From contig JAHEXY010000012.1 in NCBI GenBank assembly GCA_023251875.1, positions 16,111-80,110 of the forward strand: a stretch of 64,000 bases of DNA. Direction: 5' to 3'. Every line of letters begins with the position of its first letter. Position 1 is the stretch's first letter. Under the pieces are notes generated by a model, which made no database searches, was not told the DNA's origin, and worked only from the letters and a program-made list of their open reading frames with translations. Positions 7,585 to 56,890 of the stretch are shown piece by piece. The DNA comes from Bacteroidota bacterium (lineage in GTDB: Bacteria > Bacteroidota > Bacteroidia > JAHEXY01). The position numbers and the translations under genes are program-made.

Positions 7585-7621
7585 CTCCCTCACCCTTCCC
7601 CTCGCCCTAAGGGAGAGGGAG
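7585..7621. terminator. GC-rich hairpin with a 12-bp stem (one mismatch) flanked by A/T runs. It sits between the DUF721-family gene and sucC and is a distant relative of the repeat family at 47.4 and 50.4 kb.
   Basis: ctccctcaccctt ... aagggagagggag, then gtttggaattttt. Confidence 0.5.
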
Positions 7622-7648: not shown

Positions 7649-8839
7649 TTAAGAAAGCACTTTATTCACCAAATCAGCAGCTTCTTGTAATGCAATGGCT
7701 GAGTATACTTTTAAGCCCGATTCATCAATTATTTTTTTAGCTTGTTCGGCATTGGTACCTTGTAAACGCACAATAATTGGCACATTTACTTGTCCTAAAT
7801 TTTTGTATGCATCAACTACACCCTGAGCAACACGATCACAACGAACAATACCTCCAAAAATATTTACCAGAATGGCTTTTACATTGGGATCTCTCATAAT
7901 AATTCTAAAAGCTTGTTCAACACGAGCCGCATCTGCGGTTCCACCTACATCTAAAAAATTTGCAGGTTCTCCACCTGAAAGTTTGATAATATCCATAGTT
8001 GCCATGGCTAACCCGGCACCATTTACCATACAACCAACATTACCATCTAGCTTAACATAATTTAAACTATGCTTACTTGCTTCTACTTCTGTAGGATCTT
8101 CTTCGGTAATATCACGCATGGCTTCATAATCAGGATGTCGAAACAATCCATTTCCATCTAATGAAACTTTTGCATCAACAGCAATTATTTTATCGTCAGA
8201 AGTTTTTAGCACAGGATTAATCTCGAAAAGTGATGAATCAGAACTTTCATAAGCTTTGTATAAAGAAGCAACAAATTTTGTCATTTCTTTAAAAGCTTTT
8301 CCGGAGAGGCCAAGATTGAATGCAATTTTTCTGCACTGAAAATCTTGTAAACCTACTTTTGGATCAATTTCTTCTTTATAAATTAAATGAGGGGTATGTT
8401 CTGCAACGGCTTCAATATCCATTCCACCTTCAGTAGAATAAATAATTACATTTTTCCCTGCTTGGCGATTAAGCAATACACTCATGTAAAATTCTTTGGG
8501 TTTGCTTTCACCGGGATAATAAACATCTTCAGCAATCAACACTTTGTTTACTTTTTTTCCTTTGGCTCCGGTTTGCGGGGTGATTAATTGCATACCAATA
8601 ATTTTGCCGGCAATTTCCTTTACATCATCTAATGATTTTGCCAATTTTACTCCTCCCCCTTTTCCACGCCCTCCGGCATGTATTTGAGCTTTTATAACCC
8701 ACCAATTGGTTCCTGTATCAGCATTTAATTTTTTTGCTGCTTCAACAGCTTGTTCGGCCGTATCCGCAACAATGCCTCTTTGTGTAGCAACTCCAAAGCT
8801 GCTTAAAATTTGTTTTCCTTGGTATTCGTGTATATTCAT
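7649..8839 (-). CDS. sucC: succinate--CoA ligase (ADP-forming) beta subunit
   Basis: [13 protein letters not shown]-terminus and ATP-grasp plus CoA-ligase domains. The 19 codons upstream in the ORF track translate the heptamer repeat and were judged not to be coding. Confidence 0.9.
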
Positions 8840-8843
8840 ATTT

Positions 8844-8892
8844 TGGTTGTTGGTTGTTGGTTGTTGGTTGTTGGTTGTTGGTTGAGCGAACA
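8844..8892. repeat. heptanucleotide tandem repeat (TGGTTGT)x7, which reads CAACCAA on the sucC strand. It directly abuts the sucC start codon.
   Basis: Seven consecutive copies. The last copy reads TGGTTGA. Confidence 0.85.
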
Positions 8893-9001
8893 ACAATCAA
8901 AAATAACAAACAAAAAATTGAACGGTGAAAGTAAAAGTTTTTGTTGGTAATGTCAATTAACAATAGAATTTTTATATTGCAAAAAATTAAAATAATTTTC
9001 T

Positions 9002-25872: not shown

Positions 25873-27993
25873 TTGGCAATTTTAGAAATAATGAAATCAG
25901 CCAAATCAATTCGATATAGCATCTACAATTTTTTTCTTGTTTTTTGTTTTACATTTATTTCTGCCTTTTCTTTTTCACAACAAAGCAAGATAGACTCTTT
26001 ACTTACCAATCTTAAAGTTGTTACAACCGATACTTCTCGTGTAAATACCTTAATTGAATTGGCAAATACATATTATCTCTCTGTTCCATCAAAAGCAATG
26101 GAATATTCACTACAAGCAAGGGATCTTTCAAAAAAAATAAACTTTAAAAAGGGACTATCCAATTCCTATGGTTTTCTAGGTTATTTATATCAACAAAAGG
26201 GCGAAATAAATGAAGCACTAAATTATTCAAAATTAAGTTTAGAAATATTTGAAGAGCTTAACGATAAAAAAAATACCGCTCAAATTCTCAATAATATTGG
26301 TTTTATGTATATGAACCTTGGGCAAGTAAAAAATGCCTTAGAATATTATGATAGAAGTTTAAAAATAAGAGAAGCCACAAATGATAAAGCAGGTATTGCA
26401 AACTCATTAAATAATATGGGTATGGTATATAGAAATCAAAACCAACTCGAAGATGCATTAAATTATTACCAAAGAAGCCTAAGAATAAGAACTGAAATTA
26501 ATGATAAAAAAGGTATTGCAACATGCTTTAGTAATATTGGCGGCATTTATAAAAATGAAAATAAAATAAAAGAGTCTTTAAATTATTATTTAAGAAGTTT
26601 AGAAATACGCGAATCAATAAATGATATATGGGGCATTGTTAATTCATTAAATAATATTGGGATAATTTATTTGGAACTAGGACAAATTGAAGAAGCGCTG
26701 TATAATCATCAAAAAGCATTAAATCTTGCCAAGAAAATAAATGATAAAGACGAAATTGTATGGACGTATTATAACCTTGGTGGAGTTTATTATGCTCAAA
26801 AAAAGTATGTACTTGCATTTAATTATTGCGATAGCTCGCTTAGGCTTTCAAAAGAAATTGGTTTCCCGGAAGATATTCGTAATGCAGAATATTTATTTTC
26901 AAAAATTGATTCTGCGAGAGGCAATTTATTGGGCGCACTACAACACTATAAACAATATGTTTTTTATACAGATAGTTTAAGCAATGAAGAATCACGAAGT
27001 GCAGCTCTTAAAAAACAATTGCAATATGAATATGAAAAAAAAGAAGCTACAACAGAAGCAGAACATGAAAAACAAGCTGCAATTGCATTAGCTGAAAATA
27101 GACGACAACAGCTTTTTGTGTGGTTGCTATTTGCTATTATAATAGGAATAGGCACCGTAGCTTTTGTATCCTTTCGTTCATTACGAATTACTAAACGCCA
27201 AAAAGTAATTATTGAACATAAAAGTAAAGTGATAGAAAAAAAGCAACAAGAAATGATTGATTCTATAACCTATGCAAAACGACTACAAGAAGCCATATTA
27301 CCGCCTATTTCATTAATAAAAACACATTTACCCAACAGTTTTGTCTTATATAAACCCAAAGACATTGTTGCCGGAGATTTTTACTGGATGGAGGTTATCG
27401 ACAATATTATTTTTATAGCTGCTGCTGATTGCACCGGCCATGGTGTTCCGGGAGCAATGGTAAGTGTTGTTTGTAGTAATGCTTTAAACCGAACTATAAA
27501 TGAATTTGGTATCAGAGATACCGGAAAAATTCTTGATAAAGTAACTACTCTTGTTTTAGAAACATTTGAAAAAAGCAGCTCAGATGTAAAAGACGGAATG
27601 GATATTTCTCTTCTTGCAATAAATAAAATAACCAAACAAATACAATGGAGTGGCGCAAATAATCCATTATGGTATTTTAAAAATAATGAGATAATAAAAA
27701 TAAAGGCCGATAAACAACCTATTGGAAAATATGATTTCCGAAAACCATTTACAACAAATAATATTGAATATGCTGAAAACTCAATGTACTATTTATTTAC
27801 GGATGGGTTTACCGATCAATTTGGAGGGCAAGAAGGAAAAAAATATATGTACAAACGATTTGTTGAAAAATTACTGTCTATAAATAGTTTATCTTTAAAT
27901 TCACAAAAAGAAAAATTAGAGATGGAATTTATTGATTGGAAGGGAGATTTAGAACAAGTAGATGACATAACTGTAATTGGAATAAAAATATAA
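25873..27993 (+). CDS. TPR-repeat sensor with transmembrane helix and C-terminal PP2C/SpoIIE phosphatase domain
   Basis: Signal peptide, about 8 TPR units (NIGFMYMNLGQ..., LNNMGMVYRNQ...), one transmembrane helix, and a SpoIIE domain with GDFYW, DCTGHGVPGA and DDITVIGIKI. Confidence 0.75.
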   Translation: MAILEIMKSAKSIRYSIYNFFLVFCFTFISAFSFSQQSKIDSLLTNLKVVTTDTSRVNTLIELANTYYLSVPSKAMEYSLQARDLSKKINFKKGLSNSYGFLGYLYQQKGEINEALNYSKLSLEIFEELNDKKNTAQILNNIGFMYMNLGQVKNALEYYDRSLKIREATNDKAGIANSLNNMGMVYRNQNQLEDALNYYQRSLRIRTEINDKKGIATCFSNIGGIYKNENKIKESLNYYLRSLEIRESINDIWGIVNSLNNIGIIYLELGQIEEALYNHQKALNLAKKINDKDEIVWTYYNLGGVYYAQKKYVLAFNYCDSSLRLSKEIGFPEDIRNAEYLFSKIDSARGNLLGALQHYKQYVFYTDSLSNEESRSAALKKQLQYEYEKKEATTEAEHEKQAAIALAENRRQQLFVWLLFAIIIGIGTVAFVSFRSLRITKRQKVIIEHKSKVIEKKQQEMIDSITYAKRLQEAILPPISLIKTHLPNSFVLYKPKDIVAGDFYWMEVIDNIIFIAAADCTGHGVPGAMVSVVCSNALNRTINEFGIRDTGKILDKVTTLVLETFEKSSSDVKDGMDISLLAINKITKQIQWSGANNPLWYFKNNEIIKIKADKQPIGKYDFRKPFTTNNIEYAENSMYYLFTDGFTDQFGGQEGKKYMYKRFVEKLLSINSLSLNSQKEKLEMEFIDWKGDLEQVDDITVIGIKI

Positions 27994-41376: not shown

Positions 41377-41397
41377 ACAAAATTGGTATCATTAGGC

Positions 41398-41428
41398 CCC
41401 TCTCCCATAAAGAGAGGGGTTTTATTAT
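41398..41428 (+). terminator. Rho-independent terminator CCCCTCTC-ccataaa-GAGAGGGG followed by TTTTATT
   Basis: 8-bp GC-rich stem plus a U-tract between the two FKBP genes. Confidence 0.7.
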
Positions 41429-44789: not shown

Positions 44790-45896
44790 CTAATTTGATT
44801 CGGCTAATTCATAATTTGCGTTTCGTCCGCCTTCGTTTGTTTGTTGCAAAATACCTTTTTCTACTAAGTCTTTTATATCTCTTAAAGCTGTGTCGGTTGA
44901 GGTTTTAGTAATTTTAGCCCATTTTGAGGTTTGTAATTTCCCTTCAAAATCGTCAAAAAGTTTGTTGAGCATTTGTCGTTGCCGTTCATTGATGGGCGTA
45001 TGTTCGTGTAGTTTCCAAAATTCTGCTTTATGCAGTATTTTTTGCGTGGTGTTTTCGGTAGCAAGCATTGCGTTTTTCAAGCAATGTAAAAACCATTTGA
45101 GCCATTCGGTAATATCGCCTGTGCTGTGTTGTACTTTTTGCAATACTTTGTAATACTGTTTTCGTTCTATTAAAATTTGGCTCGACATACTATAAAAACG
45201 TTCGCCACTATCTTCCGCACGGGCAAGCAACATATCTGTTAAAGCTCTTCCAATTCTGCCATTTCCATCATCAAAAGGATGAATGATGATAAACCAAAAG
45301 TGTGCTATAGCAGCTTTTAACACTAGGTCAAAACCGTTGTCGTTGTTGAACCAATCCAAAAACTTATTCATTTCCGCTTTTACAAATTTGGGCTTTAGGG
45401 CTTGGTAATGCACTTTTTCTTTACCCATTGCACCTGAAACCACTTGCATTTCGCCTGTTCGATATCTACCCACTTCTATTTTGTATGGTCCACTATACCC
45501 TGTGGGGAAAAGTGCTGCGTGCCAACCAAACAAACGTTTTTGGGTTAAAGGTAAGGTGTGTCGTTGTGTGGCATCGAGCATCATTTCTACTACGCCTTCT
45601 ATATGGCGGTTGCTCCGCACAAGTCCTGCGGTATTGATACCTAAACGCCTTGCAATGGAGGAACGCACCTGATCGTAGTTAAGCAATTCGCCTTCTATTT
45701 CCGATGATTTTACCACGTCTAAGGTTAAGGCAGTAAGTATGGCTTCTTCTTTGGCAGAAAAGCCTAAAGCCTTCATTTGTCCAATGATTTTGCCTTGCAT
45801 CAGGCGAACCTCTCCAAACACAACATTTATGCCTTTATCTTGCCAAGTAAATTTTGTCCAGTTTCTATGCTCGTAGATGTATTTTGCCATTGCCAA
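44790..45896 (-). CDS. Fic-family protein (probable AMPylator) with N-terminal inhibitory motif and C-terminal wHTH
   Basis: Fic motif HPFDDGNGRIGR. N-terminal SSEIEG ([ST]xxxE[GN]) inhibitory helix. Confidence 0.85.
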   Translation of the reverse strand: MAMAKYIYEHRNWTKFTWQDKGINVVFGEVRLMQGKIIGQMKALGFSAKEEAILTALTLDVVKSSEIEGELLNYDQVRSSIARRLGINTAGLVRSNRHIEGVVEMMLDATQRHTLPLTQKRLFGWHAALFPTGYSGPYKIEVGRYRTGEMQVVSGAMGKEKVHYQALKPKFVKAEMNKFLDWFNNDNGFDLVLKAAIAHFWFIIIHPFDDGNGRIGRALTDMLLARAEDSGERFYSMSSQILIERKQYYKVLQKVQHSTGDITEWLKWFLHCLKNAMLATENTTQKILHKAEFWKLHEHTPINERQRQMLNKLFDDFEGKLQTSKWAKITKTSTDTALRDIKDLVEKGILQQTNEGGRNANYELAESN

Positions 45897-46914: not shown

Positions 46915-47172
46915 TTAATAATGGTTTTTAAGCGAATGGATCACAATTTTATCTTTGAAAACTTCATAGACAATGCGATGTTCTTGATTTATTCTGCGAG
47001 ACCAATAACCCTTTAGATTAAATTTTAGAGGTTCGGGCTTTCCAATACCTTTAAATGGAGTTTCTTGAATTGATTCTATTAGAGCTGTAATTTTATTTTT
47101 AATACTTACATCGTTAAGTTTTTTCCAATACTCCAAATCTTTTTCTGCTTTTAGAGTATAGGCTATTTCCAT
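46915..47172 (-). CDS. type II toxin, YoeB/Txe family
   Basis: ...FKGIGKPEPLKFNLKGYWSRRINQEHRIVYEV...HSLKNHY. Confidence 0.75.
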   Translation of the reverse strand: MEIAYTLKAEKDLEYWKKLNDVSIKNKITALIESIQETPFKGIGKPEPLKFNLKGYWSRRINQEHRIVYEVFKDKIVIHSLKNHY

Positions 47173-47366
47173 AAATCTTTTGTTTTAATAACCTTGTATT
47201 GTCCCTTTTTCAATTGCTCTTTGCTTTCTTGAATTTTAGCAACAAATTCGGGATTATAAGGAGATTCTTTAGCTACTTCAAATTTTATTTTAAGCGCTTT
47301 AAAAAATGCTTTTACAGCTTCTAATTGAGAAACATCATTGGTATGTGCAATAATTGTAGTTTGCAT
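47163..47366 (-). CDS. antitoxin partner of the YoeB-like toxin
   Basis: 67-aa ORF overlapping the toxin start by 10 nt. Family not assigned. Confidence 0.5.
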   Translation of the reverse strand: MQTTIIAHTNDVSQLEAVKAFFKALKIKFEVAKESPYNPEFVAKIQESKEQLKKGQYKVIKTKDLWK

Positions 47367-47403
47367 AATATTTAATGTTTAAAATGGACTATTAACTTTA
47401 TGG

Positions 47404-47488
47404 GTAGTTCCAAAAATTAGATTTTTTTACTACCTCTCCCTTAATCCCTCTCTAAGAGAGGGACACAAATTGTAATTTTTGGAACTAC
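47404..47488. repeat. about 85-nt nested palindromic intergenic element, copy B: a 16-bp outer inverted repeat around an inner GC hairpin
   Basis: Outer arms GTAGTTCCAAAAATTA / TAATTTTTGGAACTAC. Inner hairpin TCCCTCTC-taa-GAGAGGGA. It shares the core CCTCTCCCTTAATCCCTCTC and AATTGTAATTTT with the copy at 50391. Confidence 0.7.
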
Positions 47489-47490
47489 TC

Positions 47491-49155
47491 TTAAACCTTC
47501 ACAGCCTTCTCTTCAGTTTTTTTTATTTCTTCTTCCTGCAAAAATGGATAACGATAATCAGTTGGAGGAGTAAATGTTTCTTTGATGGTGCGAGGAGAAA
47601 CCCATCGTAATAAATTTAACATGGAACCTGCTTTATCATTAGTACCGGAAGCTCTTGCCCCACCAAATGGTTGTTGGCCCACCACTGCACCTGTTGGTTT
47701 ATCATTAATATAAAGATTACCTGCAGCATTTTCTAATTTTTTCATGGCCATATCCAAGGCATAACGATCTTGTGAAAATATAGCGCCTGTTAAAGCATAA
47801 GGCGAAGTTGTATCCACTAAATCCAATGTTTCTTCAAATTTAGTTTCATCGTAAACATAAACTGTAACAACAGGCCCAAATAACTCTTCACACAAAGTGG
47901 TATATTTTGGATTGGTAGTTAAAATCACTGTTGGCTGAATAAAATAACCTTTTGATTTATCGTATTTACCTCCTGCAATTATTTCCGCATCTTTATCTGC
48001 TTTTGCTTTTTCAATGTATGAAACCAATTTATCAAATGATTTCTCATCAATTACAGCATTAATAAAATTGGTAAAATCTTCTGTAGTGCCAATTTTAAAT
48101 GAAGCGATATCCTTCAATAATTTTGCTTTGGTAGCATCCCATAAATTAGATGGCACATATACCCTTGAAGCAGCAGAACATTTTTGTCCCTGATATTCAA
48201 AAGCACCTCTGCTTATTGCAGTAGCAAAAGCATCAACATTAGAAGAAGGATGAGCAATGATAAAATCTTTTCCTCCGGTTTCCCCTACTATTCTTGGATA
48301 GGTTTTGTATTTATGAATATTTTCTCCAACCTTTTTCCACATTTGCTGAAATACAGAAGTAGAACCGGTAAAATGAATTCCTGCAAAATCGGGATGAGAA
48401 AAAACGGTATCGGATGCCGAGGCCGATTTACAGGCAACCATATTAATTACCCCTGCAGGTAAACCGGCTTCAATCAATACTTCCATAATTACAGCAGCCG
48501 AATATATTTGTTTGTCGGATGGCTTCCAAACTACTGTATTACCCATTAAAGCAGGAGCACAACATAAGTTTGATGCAATAGCGGTAAAATTAAAAGGAGT
48601 AACAGCAAATACAAATCCCTCCAGCGGTCGGTATTCTAAACGATTCCAAATGCCGGGAGAAGAAATGGGTTGTTGCGCATAAATTTCAGTCATAAATTGC
48701 ACATTGAATCTTAAAAAATCTATCAATTCACAAGCTGCATCAATTTCTGCTTGAAAAACATTTTTCGATTGGCCCAGCATAGTAGCTGCATTAATTTTTG
48801 CTCTATACGGACCAGCCAATAAATCTGCTGCTTTTAAAAAAATTGCAGCCCTTTGTTCCCATGAAAAGTTGCCCCATTTTGCTTTAGCTGCCAAAGCTGC
48901 GTCAATTGCCATTTGCACGTGCGAGGTATCTCCTTGATAATAATAACCCAACACATGTTGATGGTCATGCGGTGGACGCATAGCCACTTTCTTATCAGAT
49001 TTTATTTCTTTTTCACCAATGTATAATGGAACTTCAATTTGTTTTGATTTTAATTCTTTTAATGTTCGTTTTAAATTTTCTCTTTCTTTAGTTCCTGGAG
49101 CATAGCTTAGTACAGGTTCGTTAACGGCAGTTGGTACTTGATAAGTTGAGTTCAT
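47491..49155 (-). CDS. pruA: L-glutamate gamma-semialdehyde (1-pyrroline-5-carboxylate) dehydrogenase
   Basis: Aldehyde dehydrogenase fold with a catalytic Cys context (GQKCSAASR). N-terminus MNSTYQVPTAVNEP... The start was set at the internal Met. Confidence 0.85.
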   Translation of the reverse strand: MNSTYQVPTAVNEPVLSYAPGTKERENLKRTLKELKSKQIEVPLYIGEKEIKSDKKVAMRPPHDHQHVLGYYYQGDTSHVQMAIDAALAAKAKWGNFSWEQRAAIFLKAADLLAGPYRAKINAATMLGQSKNVFQAEIDAACELIDFLRFNVQFMTEIYAQQPISSPGIWNRLEYRPLEGFVFAVTPFNFTAIASNLCCAPALMGNTVVWKPSDKQIYSAAVIMEVLIEAGLPAGVINMVACKSASASDTVFSHPDFAGIHFTGSTSVFQQMWKKVGENIHKYKTYPRIVGETGGKDFIIAHPSSNVDAFATAISRGAFEYQGQKCSAASRVYVPSNLWDATKAKLLKDIASFKIGTTEDFTNFINAVIDEKSFDKLVSYIEKAKADKDAEIIAGGKYDKSKGYFIQPTVILTTNPKYTTLCEELFGPVVTVYVYDETKFEETLDLVDTTSPYALTGAIFSQDRYALDMAMKKLENAAGNLYINDKPTGAVVGQQPFGGARASGTNDKAGSMLNLLRWVSPRTIKETFTPPTDYRYPFLQEEEIKKTEEKAVKV

Positions 49156-49270
49156 ATTTTCAATTATTATTAATATTAAAATGTATGTTTTAGAAATTTT
49201 ATAAATGTTGGTTTCGAGAACCTCAACCAACTCTTAATGGTGGCTGAGGCTCTCGAAGCCACATTAGATT

Positions 49271-49657
49271 TCAATTAAGTCTATTTTCAGCGGTTAAATT
49301 AAATGCAGGAATTTGCACTTTAAATTCTTGCATGTTTACTAAATTTCTCATTACATAATAACCTTTCATTTGTCCCATATCAGTAGCCAATTCACAATAC
49401 GAATTGTATTCATGACTTTCTCCGGGTTTAATAACAGGTTGTTCTCCAATAACACCTTCACCATCTACAGCGTATTTTTTATATATAGAATCAAAAATAT
49501 CCCAATGCCTGCGCATCAATTGAACAGCTACATCACTGGTATTTTCAATGGTAATGTAATAGGTGAAAACAAATTTTGGTACAAACGAATCAGAATAATC
49601 CTTTTCAAATAGAGTATCTACCGATACTTTTATTCCGTGTGTAATTAATGTTGTCAT
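49271..49657 (-). CDS. apaG: ApaG (DUF525) protein
   Basis: MTTLITHGIKVSV...YYITIENTS...GVIGEQPVIKPGESHEY, the ApaG beta-sandwich pattern. Confidence 0.8.
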   Translation of the reverse strand: MTTLITHGIKVSVDTLFEKDYSDSFVPKFVFTYYITIENTSDVAVQLMRRHWDIFDSIYKKYAVDGEGVIGEQPVIKPGESHEYNSYCELATDMGQMKGYYVMRNLVNMQEFKVQIPAFNLTAENRLN

Positions 49658-49770
49658 AAAAAAATATTACACAAAGTTACAATTTTTTATTGCTAAAATA
49701 TAGTAGAAAAGGATCCTCTTAATAGCTTTATAATTACCTTTGATCCCTTAAAAACTTTTTTTTCAAAAAA

Positions 49771-50364
49771 ATGCATAAAGAAATAGATATAAAAATAGAT
49801 TATTTTGCACATCCGAGTGCTATTATTGACCATCCTTGTATGATTGCTAAAGGGGTTAAAATATGGCATTTTTCACACATTATGCCTAATTGTGTAATTG
49901 GAGAAAACTGCAATATTGGTCAAAATGTAGTAATATCATCAGAAGTAGTGCTTGGTAAAAATGTAAAAGTGCAAAATAATGTTTCCATTTATACCGGTGT
50001 TACCTGCGATGATGATGTATTTTTAGGCCCTTCGATGGTATTTACCAATGTAACCAATCCAAGAAGTGCCATAAATAGAAGAGGGCAATATGCCAAAACA
50101 CATGTAGGAAAAGGGGCTTCTATTGGTGCTAATGCCACCATTGTTTGTGGTCATAACATTGGAGCGTTTGCATTTATTGGCGCAGGAGCTGTTGTTACTA
50201 AACATGTTCCGGCTTATGCACTTGTAGTAGGAAATCCTGCAAGGCAAATAGGCTGGATAAGTGAATACGGGCACAGACTTGAATTTAATGCAGAAGGAAT
50301 TGCCGAATGCCTTGAAAGCAAAGAAAAATACCAGTTAAAAAATAATAGTGTAAGCAAATTATAA
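49771..50364 (+). CDS. left-handed beta-helix (hexapeptide-repeat) acyl/acetyltransferase, probably sugar N-acetyltransferase-like
   Basis: Tandem [LIV]GxxxxI hexapeptide repeats throughout. Confidence 0.7.
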   Translation: MHKEIDIKIDYFAHPSAIIDHPCMIAKGVKIWHFSHIMPNCVIGENCNIGQNVVISSEVVLGKNVKVQNNVSIYTGVTCDDDVFLGPSMVFTNVTNPRSAINRRGQYAKTHVGKGASIGANATIVCGHNIGAFAFIGAGAVVTKHVPAYALVVGNPARQIGWISEYGHRLEFNAEGIAECLESKEKYQLKNNSVSKL

Positions 50365-50390
50365 TGAGTTTATGATTGTTTAAACCTTAA

Positions 50391-50472
50391 GGTGAGTTCT
50401 AAAAATTATATTTTTTGTTTCCTCTCCCTTAATCCCTCTCAAAGAGATAAATTGTAATTTTCAGAACTCACC
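50391..50472. repeat. about 82-nt nested palindromic intergenic element, copy C
   Basis: Outer arms GGTGAGTTCTAAAAATTA / TAATTTTCAGAACTCACC (one mismatch). Inner core CCTCTCCCTTAATCCCTCTC identical to the copy at 47404. Confidence 0.7.
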
Positions 50473-50506
50473 TTTATTCCTTTTTTTTAAATGCTAATTC
50501 ATTATC

Positions 50507-52018: not shown

Positions 52019-54112
52019 ATGTTACAAAGCAAATACTTTATTTTTCTTTATTTTCTTTTTTTACCCATTATTCTATTGGGGCAAAACAGAGAAATTGATT
52101 CTCTAAAAAATGTTGTAATAAACCTTCCTGAGGATACTAACAAAGTAAAAGTTATCAATGAAATTAGTTGGAATTTACTTTATACAAGTAAATATGATGA
52201 AGCAAGAGACTATGCCAATAAAGCACTTATTTTATCAAACAAATTAAATTATTTGCTTGGCCAGGTTAAAGCCATTGTTCGTTTGGGTTTAGCAGATGAA
52301 GAACAAGGTAAATATCCAAGTGCGCTTGATCATTATTTTGAGGCCCTGCATTTAAGCAATGACCATAATTTTACTAAAGGTAAAAACATGGCATTAAACA
52401 ATATTGGCAATACGTATTATCATTTACTTGATTTACCTCGTGCATTAGATTATCATCTTTTGGCTTTAAAAACAGCAGAAAAGTTGAGAGATTCCGTTTC
52501 CATCTCAAAATCCTACAACAATATTGGAAATATTTATAACGCTATGGAAGAATATCACAAAGCTTTAGAATACTATCTTCAATCTTATAATATTAGCACA
52601 AAAGATCTCGTTGGAGAAGATTTGGCTTCTATATTAAGCAATATTGGCCAAGTTTATACACACCTCAATAAATTAGATACAGCATTATTATATAATGGCA
52701 GAGCCTTAGAAATTCGCAAAAAATTTGGATATACTGAGGGGGTTATTACTTCATTAAATAATCTGGGAACTACCTATCAACATAAATTAGAATATCAAAA
52801 AGCCTTGGATTGTTTTAATAATGAATTAAAATTAGCAATTGAAATTGGAAGCCAACAAGATGAATCTCTAGCTTTATTTAATATTGCATTTACCAATAGA
52901 GAATTAAAAAATTATAGAGAATCTATACTGTATGTAAAAAAATCAATTGCTATAAGTCAATTATTAGGAACTAAGAATGATATAAAAGACGATTATAAAT
53001 TTTTAGCTGAAACCTATTGGGATATGAAAATGCCAGATAGCTCAGCTGTATATTATAATAACTATTTAAAATTAACAGATACATTATCTAATTACCAAAG
53101 AAAAAACAACATTACTGAAAAAATGCAGCAATATGATTTTGAAAAAGCAAGAGACAAGGAACAATTAGCAGAAGCAGAAAAAAACATTATTACAAATGAA
53201 AGATTAAGAAGACAAAAAGTAATTATTAGATCATTTGCTGCCATTGCAATTTTACTTTTAATTTTAGGTTTTGTTGCATATAGAGGTTATATAATTAAAA
53301 AGAAAGACAATTTATTGCTTGCTCTACAGAAAAAAGAAATTGAAGAAAAACACAGTGAGATTACTAAAAGTATTAATTACGCACAACGCATTCAAAATGC
53401 TATTCTCCCTCCTATTGATACAATTAAAATTGCTTTTCCTGAATCATTTATTTTATTTAAACCAAAAGATATTGTAAGTGGCGATTTTTATTGGTTTTAC
53501 GAAACACCAACAGGATATCTAATTGCAGCTGCAGATTGTACCGGACATGGTGTTCCAGGTGCCTTTATGAATATGATTGGATCAGAAAAACTAAACGAAG
53601 CTGTTATTGAAAGTCATTATCCAGATGAAATGCTTCACTTCTTAAACCATGGAATTAAAACTTCATTAAGGCAAACTGAAAATGATCAATCCACAAGGGA
53701 CGGAATGGACATTGCGCTTTGTTTCTTCAACAAACAAACAAATACGTTAACGTATTCCGGTGCTAACCGACCTTTATGGATCATCAAAAAAGGCCATAAA
53801 ACTATTACTGAAATTAAAGCTACAAAAGAATCAATAGGGGGATATACAAAAGACAATCAAGTTTTTGAAAAACATATTATTCAATTAGAACAAGGAGATG
53901 CATTTTATATTTTTTCTGATGGTTATGCCGATCAATTTGGAGGGACTTTAGACAAAAAAATAACTACAAAAAGATTAAAAGAAATTTTGATTGATATTGT
54001 AGAAAAACCAATGCTTGAACAAAAAAATTATCTCGAAAACTTTATCAATAATTGGAAAGTCGAGAAAGAACAAATTGATGATATTCTTGTAATGGGAATA
54101 AAAATCACTTGA
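52019..54112 (+). CDS. TPR-repeat sensor with transmembrane helix and C-terminal PP2C/SpoIIE phosphatase domain; paralogue of the 25873 gene
   Basis: Same architecture: INYAQRIQNAILPP, GDFYW, DCTGHGVPGA, DDILVMGIKI. Confidence 0.75.
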   Translation: MLQSKYFIFLYFLFLPIILLGQNREIDSLKNVVINLPEDTNKVKVINEISWNLLYTSKYDEARDYANKALILSNKLNYLLGQVKAIVRLGLADEEQGKYPSALDHYFEALHLSNDHNFTKGKNMALNNIGNTYYHLLDLPRALDYHLLALKTAEKLRDSVSISKSYNNIGNIYNAMEEYHKALEYYLQSYNISTKDLVGEDLASILSNIGQVYTHLNKLDTALLYNGRALEIRKKFGYTEGVITSLNNLGTTYQHKLEYQKALDCFNNELKLAIEIGSQQDESLALFNIAFTNRELKNYRESILYVKKSIAISQLLGTKNDIKDDYKFLAETYWDMKMPDSSAVYYNNYLKLTDTLSNYQRKNNITEKMQQYDFEKARDKEQLAEAEKNIITNERLRRQKVIIRSFAAIAILLLILGFVAYRGYIIKKKDNLLLALQKKEIEEKHSEITKSINYAQRIQNAILPPIDTIKIAFPESFILFKPKDIVSGDFYWFYETPTGYLIAAADCTGHGVPGAFMNMIGSEKLNEAVIESHYPDEMLHFLNHGIKTSLRQTENDQSTRDGMDIALCFFNKQTNTLTYSGANRPLWIIKKGHKTITEIKATKESIGGYTKDNQVFEKHIIQLEQGDAFYIFSDGYADQFGGTLDKKITTKRLKEILIDIVEKPMLEQKNYLENFINNWKVEKEQIDDILVMGIKIT

Positions 54113-56502: not shown

Positions 56503-56650
56503 ATGCGGCAGATCCGTAGAACATTTGTAGAATTGCTAACAAAAAGATCTCTTAAGGTGCGTAGCACTGGAACATAAAAATATTTCGGAGCTACGCACCT
56601 TTCGTAACTGTGATTATCATTTCTCTACAAATATTTCGCGGATCTGCCGC
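56503..56650. repeat. structured non-coding element E1: nested inverted repeats (26-bp outer arms, 12-bp inner stem)
   Basis: Outer arms GCGGCAGATCCGTAGAACATTTGTAG ... CTACAAATATTTCGCGGATCTGCCGC. Inner stem AAGGTGCGTAGC ... GCTACGCACCTT. Confidence 0.6.
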
Positions 56651-56699
56651 TGCTCTAATCTTGCCAAATATAATTATTTTCAAACTGTATTCTAATAAA

Positions 56700-56890
56700 A
56701 GGCGGCAGAGCCGCACAATATTTGTAGAATTGACATAATCGTAAAATATTTTAAGGTGCATCGCACCAAAATATATTTATTAAATCTCATTCTTTAAGCG
56801 CATCTCGGTTTTTAACCGCAAATACAAAATGTATGTATCGTTGTATGTATGTGTTTGCCATTGTTTAATATTTCGGTGCTATGCACAATG
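56700..56890. repeat. degenerate duplicate (E2) of element E1 with the same motif order
   Basis: GGCGGCAGAGCCGC, ATATTTGTAGAATTG, TTTTAAGGTGCATCGCACC and ATATTTCGGTGCTATGCAC recapitulate the E1 motifs. Confidence 0.5.

Follow-up and report, generated by a model that had tools for sequence, protein, structure and literature searches.

Probable miniature inverted-repeat elements carrying a BoxC/PIT/TMECO-type triplex motif in a Bacteroidota genome

We analysed a 64-kb stretch of a Bacteroidota genome (hereafter, the window) that contains two related intergenic repeats, A (positions 47402-47490) and B (50390-50473), and a smaller related site at 7587-7619. Proteins identical to those of the window were found in metagenome assemblies only, and its closest named relatives are 'Bacteroidia bacterium' genomes assembled from metagenomes. 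A and B are probably copies of a miniature inverted-repeat transposable element (MITE) of ~85-90 bp that carries, as cargo, a motif of the intrastrand triplex type described as BoxC, PIT or TMECO, with the site at 7587-7619 as a free-standing member of the same class. This reading draws on the homology of the two copies, their paired arms and flanking repeats, the mirror-image design of their core, the match to a published pattern at the third site, and the wide distribution of the core in other genomes, all of which were observed directly.

As an earlier note on this DNA had described, A and B share an identical 20-mer, CCTCTCCCTTAATCCCTCTC. Its sole occurrences in the window are these two plus-strand copies, at 47433 and 50421. 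No match to it was found in 100 shuffles, with up to 3 mismatches tolerated. The similarity is not confined to this core: the two copies align end to end over ~85 nt, including their AT-rich spacers, with 83% identity. Copy A (plus strand, 89 nt) is bounded by a left arm, GGGTAGTTCCAAAAATTA (47402-47419), and a right arm, TAATTTTTGGAACTACTC (47473-47490), and copy B (plus strand, 84 nt) by the arms AGGTGAGTTCTAAAAATTA (50390-50408) and TAATTTTCAGAACTCACCT (50455-50473). These terminal inverted repeats, roughly GGGTRGTTCYAAAAATTA, span 18-19 bp and pair at 17/18 positions in A and at 18/19 in B, where the stem contains one A.C mismatch. The earlier note had described repeats of 16-18 bp; their presence stands, and the arms reach slightly further out than it had placed them. 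Differences between the arms of the two copies preserve pairing: a C-G pair has become T-A, and a G inserted on one side finds its partner in a C inserted on the other. A and B are the longest and third-longest inverted repeats of the window, which has a G+C content of ~32%, and in a shuffle test of folding on the plus strand they reached z = -6.3 (A) and -6.5 (B), with no shuffle as good.

Judged by its design, the core reads as a mirror-repeat, three-tract motif of a known class, the intrastrand triplex motifs to which BoxC/PIT/TMECO belongs, and not as a plain hairpin. In A, where the motif is intact (47434-47463, plus strand), a Hoogsteen-type tract, CTCTCCCT (47434-47441), is followed by a TAA loop, the Watson-Crick pyrimidine arm TCCCTCTC (47445-47452), a second TAA loop and the purine arm GAGAGGGA (47456-47463). 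The upstream tract is the reverse of TCCCTCTC, neither its complement nor a direct copy. As the mirror image of this arm, it is the parallel complement of the purine arm, which is the geometry required of a pyrimidine-motif third strand (T.A-T, C+.G-C); its counterpart on the opposite strand is an antiparallel G/A strand, as in the purine motif. With the triplet classes defined as in PMC4666352, the plus strand of the A motif has 8 possible C+.G-C/T.A-T triplets (class IV), and its minus strand has 8 G.G-C/A.A-T triplets (class II). The inner hairpin, TCCCTCTC-TAA-GAGAGGGA, is whole in A alone. The motif of B (50422-50447, plus strand) is decayed: CTCTCCCT (50422-50429), TAA and TCCCTCTC (50433-50440) are followed by AAA and then just GAGA (50444-50447), such that the purine arm has lost 6 nt relative to A and the hairpin is reduced to TCTC-AAA-GAGA. 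The ITxF criteria (PMC4666352) call for consecutive Hoogsteen-type, pyrimidine and purine tracts; stems may measure 6-15 nt and loops 1-6 nt, and no more than one mismatch is allowed. A passes, with 8/8 possible triplets and loops TAA and TAA, and so does the site at 7587-7619, whose 9-nt tracts contain a single mismatch and are separated by TTA and GAA loops; B, its purine arm down to 4 nt, fails.

The extra tract might also be a direct repeat that serves alternative Watson-Crick pairing. The arms in the window are nearly mirror-symmetric and so are uninformative by themselves on this point, and the relationship was counted instead over ~700 kb of loci around matches to the 20-mer. A third tract was present in 106 of the 143 hairpins with a pyrimidine arm. 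Where the arms were asymmetric, the third tract was a mirror repeat in 22 cases, a direct repeat in none and a tie in one, over 8 arm types. The query motif itself makes up many of the 22; about five of the arm types do not depend on the query 20-mer. Independent mirror examples include CCTCATCC..CCCTTCTCC..GGAGAAGGG and CCCCACCT..TCCTCCCC..GGGGAGGA. For the family as a whole, the 22 mirror cases and the absence of direct ones rule out a direct repeat. A single T-to-A change recurs in the third tract; read from the opposite strand, it yields GGGTGAGGG.

The third site (7587-7619, minus strand) lacks outer arms and reads CCCTCTCCC-TTA-GGGCGAGGG-GAA-GGGTGAGGG; it lies between a sucC-like gene and the following minus-strand gene. 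In their study of intrastrand triplex motifs, Holder et al. (2015; PMC4666352) equate TMECO with BoxC and the PIT element, give its pattern as CCCTCNCCC N3-6 GGGNGAGGG N3 GGGNGAGGG, and report 3610 occurrences in 262 proteobacterial genomes. This strict TMECO/BoxC pattern has an exact match only at 7587-7619, on the minus strand, with 0 matches expected by chance. Of 5426 E. coli genomes, 4223 contain sites, such as one in the gabT-gabP spacer, with which this site shares 87% identity over 39 nt. By itself it folds no better than shuffles (z = -0.9 and -1.5). The proposal in the earlier note that a third, more diverged hairpin (7585-7621) is related therefore holds by design and by the exact match to a published pattern, not by fold. 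BoxC/PIT elements are said to have been treated earlier by Bachellier et al. in the 1990s and by Hoyne et al. in 2000.

The window motifs share with BoxC/PIT/TMECO the three tracts built on CCCTCNCCC / GGGNGAGGG, short loops with a TTA-type second loop, and the mirror relation, as well as an intergenic location, many copies, the lack of strand bias and a proneness to small deletions. A and B are nevertheless variants and not strict TMECO members: their arms are 8 nt long and end in TCTC, and the second loop is TTAA, which sets them outside the strict pattern, and a BLAST search of E. coli genomes with the A core gave no match. The host also differs, being a member of the Bacteroidota and not a proteobacterium; the motif of A and B is nested within what is probably a MITE; and relatives of the window motif lie in frame within genes (see below), whereas TMECO elements of E. 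coli are invariably intergenic, without strand bias (PMC4666352). BoxC is among the listed stem-loop repeat families of E. coli (PMC2267715), and TMECO has been linked to small local deletions and rearrangements (PMC4666352). No phage association was found for E. coli TMECO (PMC4666352). The published pattern gave at least 120 matches in IMG/VR contigs, so the class is not absent from viral/proviral contigs; the exact 20-mer gave 0 matches there. Rfam searches at gathering and permissive thresholds returned chance microRNA/snoRNA matches only, and a literature search for the exact sequence found no report of it.

The outer arms form a second layer. We searched metagenome contigs for GTTCYAAAAATTA, 30-60 nt and TAATTTTYRGAAC, a pattern that imposes 13 nt of each arm, and recovered about six distinct elements with unrelated interiors. 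Some shared features lie outside the imposed positions: in two of these elements (L112 and L117; L numbers are our handles) the arms continue outward with GG(G)TNG, as in A and B, and two others (L113 and L119) have a common T-run just inside the left arm. The metagenome elements likewise lie just past stop codons or in spacers. The flanks are direct and not inverted repeats, namely TTAT|TTAT in L112, ATAA|ATAA in L117, TTA|TTA in B (50387-50389 and 50474-50476) and TTAT|TTAA in A (47398-47401 and 47491-47494). Target-site duplication is accordingly a candidate of moderate strength for B, L112 and L117, with boundaries that were chosen after inspection. The earlier note had suggested a dispersed MITE/REP-like element and a comparison of its flanks for target-site duplications; the recurrence of the arms in metagenome contigs with 3-4-bp direct-repeat flanks, imperfect in A, and the more than 106 exact copies of the core elsewhere agree with that suggestion. 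The right-hand TTAA of A also includes the stop codon of the adjoining aldehyde dehydrogenase gene, which places A exactly at the end of a coding sequence.

Several known MITEs (Correia/NEMIS, RUP and ERIC; PMC4666352, PMC2267715) have comparable features: they are shorter than 200 bp and non-coding, have terminal inverted repeats and a short target duplication, form a long stem-loop at the RNA level, and lie in intergenic DNA beside gene ends. Unlike these families, the present elements have only their ends in common with their metagenome relatives, and no parent insertion sequence was found in the regions searched. Two nested elements of different origin would account for a core that is conserved while the arms have diverged.

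Under the MITE reading, the ends of the element would be the 18-19-bp terminal inverted repeats, insertion would occur at TTA/TTAT-type targets with target duplication, and mobilisation would be provided in trans by a transposase encoded outside the window. Its centre would consist of two mirror-image pyrimidine tracts followed by the complementary purine tract, and in single-stranded DNA, or in RNA of the C-rich strand, these might form a hairpin with a third strand in the major groove. Triplex folding of the window motif is suggested here by analogy with the published behaviour of TMECO, the isolated strand of which forms a stable triplex in vitro (PMC4666352). No gene-regulatory role is needed, and under this reading the elements are best regarded as structured repeats, selfish or neutral, that lodge in short spacers beside stop codons. 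The loss of 6 nt in B would be consistent with the small deletions tied to this motif class in E. coli, and the long stem of B with its T-rich tail may have the side effect of terminating or stabilising the transcript from upstream.

Several observations weigh against this interpretation. There are only two copies within 64 kb, and a search of JGI metagenomes with a pattern for the core and 3' spacer of the composite gave 0 matches. The window, the fetched loci and viral contigs yielded neither a full-length insertion sequence nor a transposase with these ends. Pfam searches detected no transposase domain in the 10 window open reading frames (ORFs) scanned, the arm search in viral contigs gave single chance matches only, and neither solitary arms nor wider-spaced arm pairs were present in the window or the fetched loci. 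The flanking repeat of A is imperfect and TTAA is itself palindromic, the element boundaries were picked after viewing the sequences, in AT-rich DNA, and 13 nt of each metagenome arm were set by the search pattern. As for the core, the motif of B is already broken, and CCCTCTCCC is a self-mirror 9-mer, so that the window copies alone cannot separate a triplex from alternative Watson-Crick pairing. In E. coli, moreover, no stable TMECO triplex was detected in duplex DNA or in vivo (PMC4666352).

Beyond the window, the exact 20-mer was found at more than 106 places in ~70 genomes among GTDB species representatives (596 Gb; ~1 match expected by chance); counts from this collection scan are lower bounds. 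With names as given in the records of the metagenome-assembled genomes, the matches fall in Bacteroidota, Dehalococcoidia/Chloroflexota, Gastranaerophilales, Ignavibacteria, Saccharibacteria and other Patescibacteria, Alphaproteobacteria, Verrucomicrobiota, Brachyspira, Zixibacteria, Leptolyngbya and a Methanomethylophilaceae archaeon; more than ten phyla are named among the genomes listed, including this one archaeon. One cultured isolate (Brumimicrobium glaciale) and one closed chromosome are among them. Nearly all matches extend into a complementary purine arm, in the form (C)CCTCTCCCT-TAA-TCCCTCTCC-loop-GGAGAGGGA. The flanks are kept within a lineage only, and the core is often fused to other small palindromes, with mosaic clusters around it in Dehalococcoidia, Gastranaerophilales and rumen genomes. 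Certain partner palindromes, such as GTCGGCCTTACGGCCGAC and GTCATCCTGAACTTGTTTCAGGATC, recur within a lineage or over several genomes. In other Bacteroidota (L093, L059, L011/L078 and a Fluviicola group), the same core lies within different, lineage-specific inverted repeats, and so triplex motifs nested in larger palindromes seem to be common in this phylum. A public Logan contig that carries the window stretch (L001, SRR14366787) starts and ends exactly at the cores of A and B, which points weakly to additional copies in that sample. By a crude count judged from long ORFs only, the gene contexts of the 20-mer were 18 convergent, 10 divergent, 15 antisense co-directional and 8 sense co-directional, with no orientation preference.

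Some copies lie within genes. The 20-mer occurs in frame in a PP2C/SpoIIE-type gene (L021), whose paralogue in the window lacks the segment, and in hsdR (L077), another ORF (L016) and thiC, where the segment is missing from solved ThiC structures. A comparison of thiC orthologues with 84-89% identity (L099:4540-4680, L250, L249 and L251) revealed two motif-like segments whose presence and absence are independent. Both lie in frame within a ThiC loop and correspond to DNA-level indels of ~32 nt and ~21 nt; on the sense strand, the first has the form of a class IV motif and the second that of class II. Such in-frame cases speak for the entry of these motifs into DNA by insertion. Elements comparable to them are the small dispersed repeats (SDR) of cyanobacteria, reportedly treated by Elhai et al. 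in 2008, and the palindromic elements of Rickettsia. Both are very small palindromic units (~20-40 nt) that appear as insertions, at times nested and at times in frame in conserved genes. The thiC indels behave alike; sequences and hosts differ, and no triplex design is known to have been described for SDR or the Rickettsia elements.

These distributions admit a different, and distinctly tentative, reading: that motifs of the CCCTCTCCC type are themselves micro-elements of ~21-35 nt, found across prokaryotes, with a mechanism of spread or regeneration of their own that involves neither transposase nor terminal repeats, and that they nest in MITEs and enter essential genes in frame. If this were true, identity of the 20-mer across phyla (by record names, Bacteroidota, Chloroflexota, Melainabacteria, Ignavibacteria, Patescibacteria, Proteobacteria, Spirochaetota, Verrucomicrobiota and a methanogen-related archaeon) would imply either ongoing interphylum transfer or a universal process of replication or repair that makes and homogenises mirror-repeat hairpins.

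A lies between two minus-strand genes, for an aldehyde dehydrogenase (P5C-dehydrogenase-like) and a DUF2683/RelE-like toxin-antitoxin pair, and ends 0-2 nt from the stop codon (47491-47493) of the former. B lies between two plus-strand genes, for a hexapeptide acetyltransferase and a protein with a metallo-beta-lactamase fold, and starts 26 nt past a stop codon at 50364. The third site is 27 nt past the stop codon of the minus-strand sucC-like gene (7649-8896), and the next same-strand gene follows 25-37 nt downstream of each of the three sites. The earlier description of the elements as lying just past stop codons is thus accurate. It is unlikely that A and B are ordinary (bidirectional) intrinsic terminators whose likeness arose by convergence, in an AT-rich genome, towards a good GC-rich stem. 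Apart from the position of all three sites, that explanation is favoured by the T-rich TTTATTCCTTTTTTTT that follows the outer stem and right-hand flank of B, and by a terminator-like hairpin at 41397-41428, CCCCTCTC-CCATAAA-GAGAGGGG followed by TTTTATT, which has the stem of the core and no third tract. Convergence does not explain homology over ~85 nt that includes AT-rich spacers, nor is an extra mirror tract needed for termination, and a terminator scan called neither A nor B. A has no T-run past its stem on either strand, B has its T-rich tail on the plus strand only, the core occurs elsewhere in both orientations and inside coding sequences, and PIT/TMECO motifs of E. coli have neither promoter nor terminator activity (PMC4666352). 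The bidirectional terminator function proposed in the earlier note is not supported for these reasons; a terminator role is plausible for B only.

Elements of the REP/REPIN type, mobilised through hairpin recognition by a RAYT (TnpA-REP, IS200/IS605-like) single-strand transposase, would also appear as nested intergenic palindromes with pairing-preserving changes in their arms. REP, BIME and REPIN elements are small extragenic palindromes (PMC3116915); in other lineages, the 20-mer forms BIME-like mosaics with other small palindromes, and the arm of A happens to start with GTAG. This origin is nonetheless quite unlikely: REPINs depend on RAYT and insert without target duplication (PMC3116915), whereas elements of the A/B type show 3-4-bp direct-repeat flanks, and no Y1 transposase was found among the 10 window ORFs scanned.

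That the core is a functional structured RNA under selection, regulatory or stabilising and perhaps a pyrimidine-motif RNA triple helix, is very unlikely: the 20-mer is identical in A and B while their flanks differ, the motif is conserved across phyla and pyrimidine-type intrastrand triplexes are possible in RNA (PMC4666352), but A and B have the same DNA orientation beside upstream genes of opposite orientation, so opposite strands are transcribed and the upstream transcript would carry the G-rich strand at A and the C-rich strand at B, the co-directional contexts (8 versus 15) give no orientation preference, B lacks an intact purine arm, Rfam gives no match, and 6/8 triplets require protonated cytosines. 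The earlier note had argued from differing arms and a conserved core to selection on the inner hairpin or a function at the RNA level. The pattern itself is as described, but the argument for selection fails because the hairpin of B is broken, and a core that faces either way without an Rfam match speaks against RNA-level function. Twenty identical bases within an alignment of 83% identity are not very unlikely, and they could also result from homogenisation among the many copies of the motif.

Taken alone, A and B would be an ordinary pair of repeats. Their probable identification as MITE copies with triplex-type cargo ties a Bacteroidota genome to the BoxC/PIT/TMECO motifs, so far studied mostly in E. 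coli, recorded in 262 proteobacterial genomes and noted in cyanobacteria. To this are added one exact 20-base variant that spans many phyla, the prospect that such a motif can ride as cargo of a miniature transposon, and the finding that related motifs are presence/absence indels within conserved genes, thiC among them. The indels in this gene and the MITE cases offer concrete insertion events for studying the mechanism.

The surroundings of the elements showed some further features. A tRNA scan of the window found none, and an empty-site comparison through neighbours of the acetyltransferase gene was limited to nearest relatives (83-86% identity) with a different gene order. The toxin-antitoxin pair near A spans 46915-47366, and a Fic-domain gene lies at 44790-45896. 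Two paralogous TPR plus PP2C/SpoIIE-type genes (25873-27993 and 52019-54112), 26 kb apart, are the source of several direct-repeat families. In a 700-nt spacer, the interval 56505-56760 contains a separate family of small palindromes, in which GCGGCAGATCCGTAGAACATTTGTAGA occurs in direct and inverted copies; the same spacer holds AAGGTGCGTAGCAC...GCTACGCACCTT, with a second, shorter copy at 56753.

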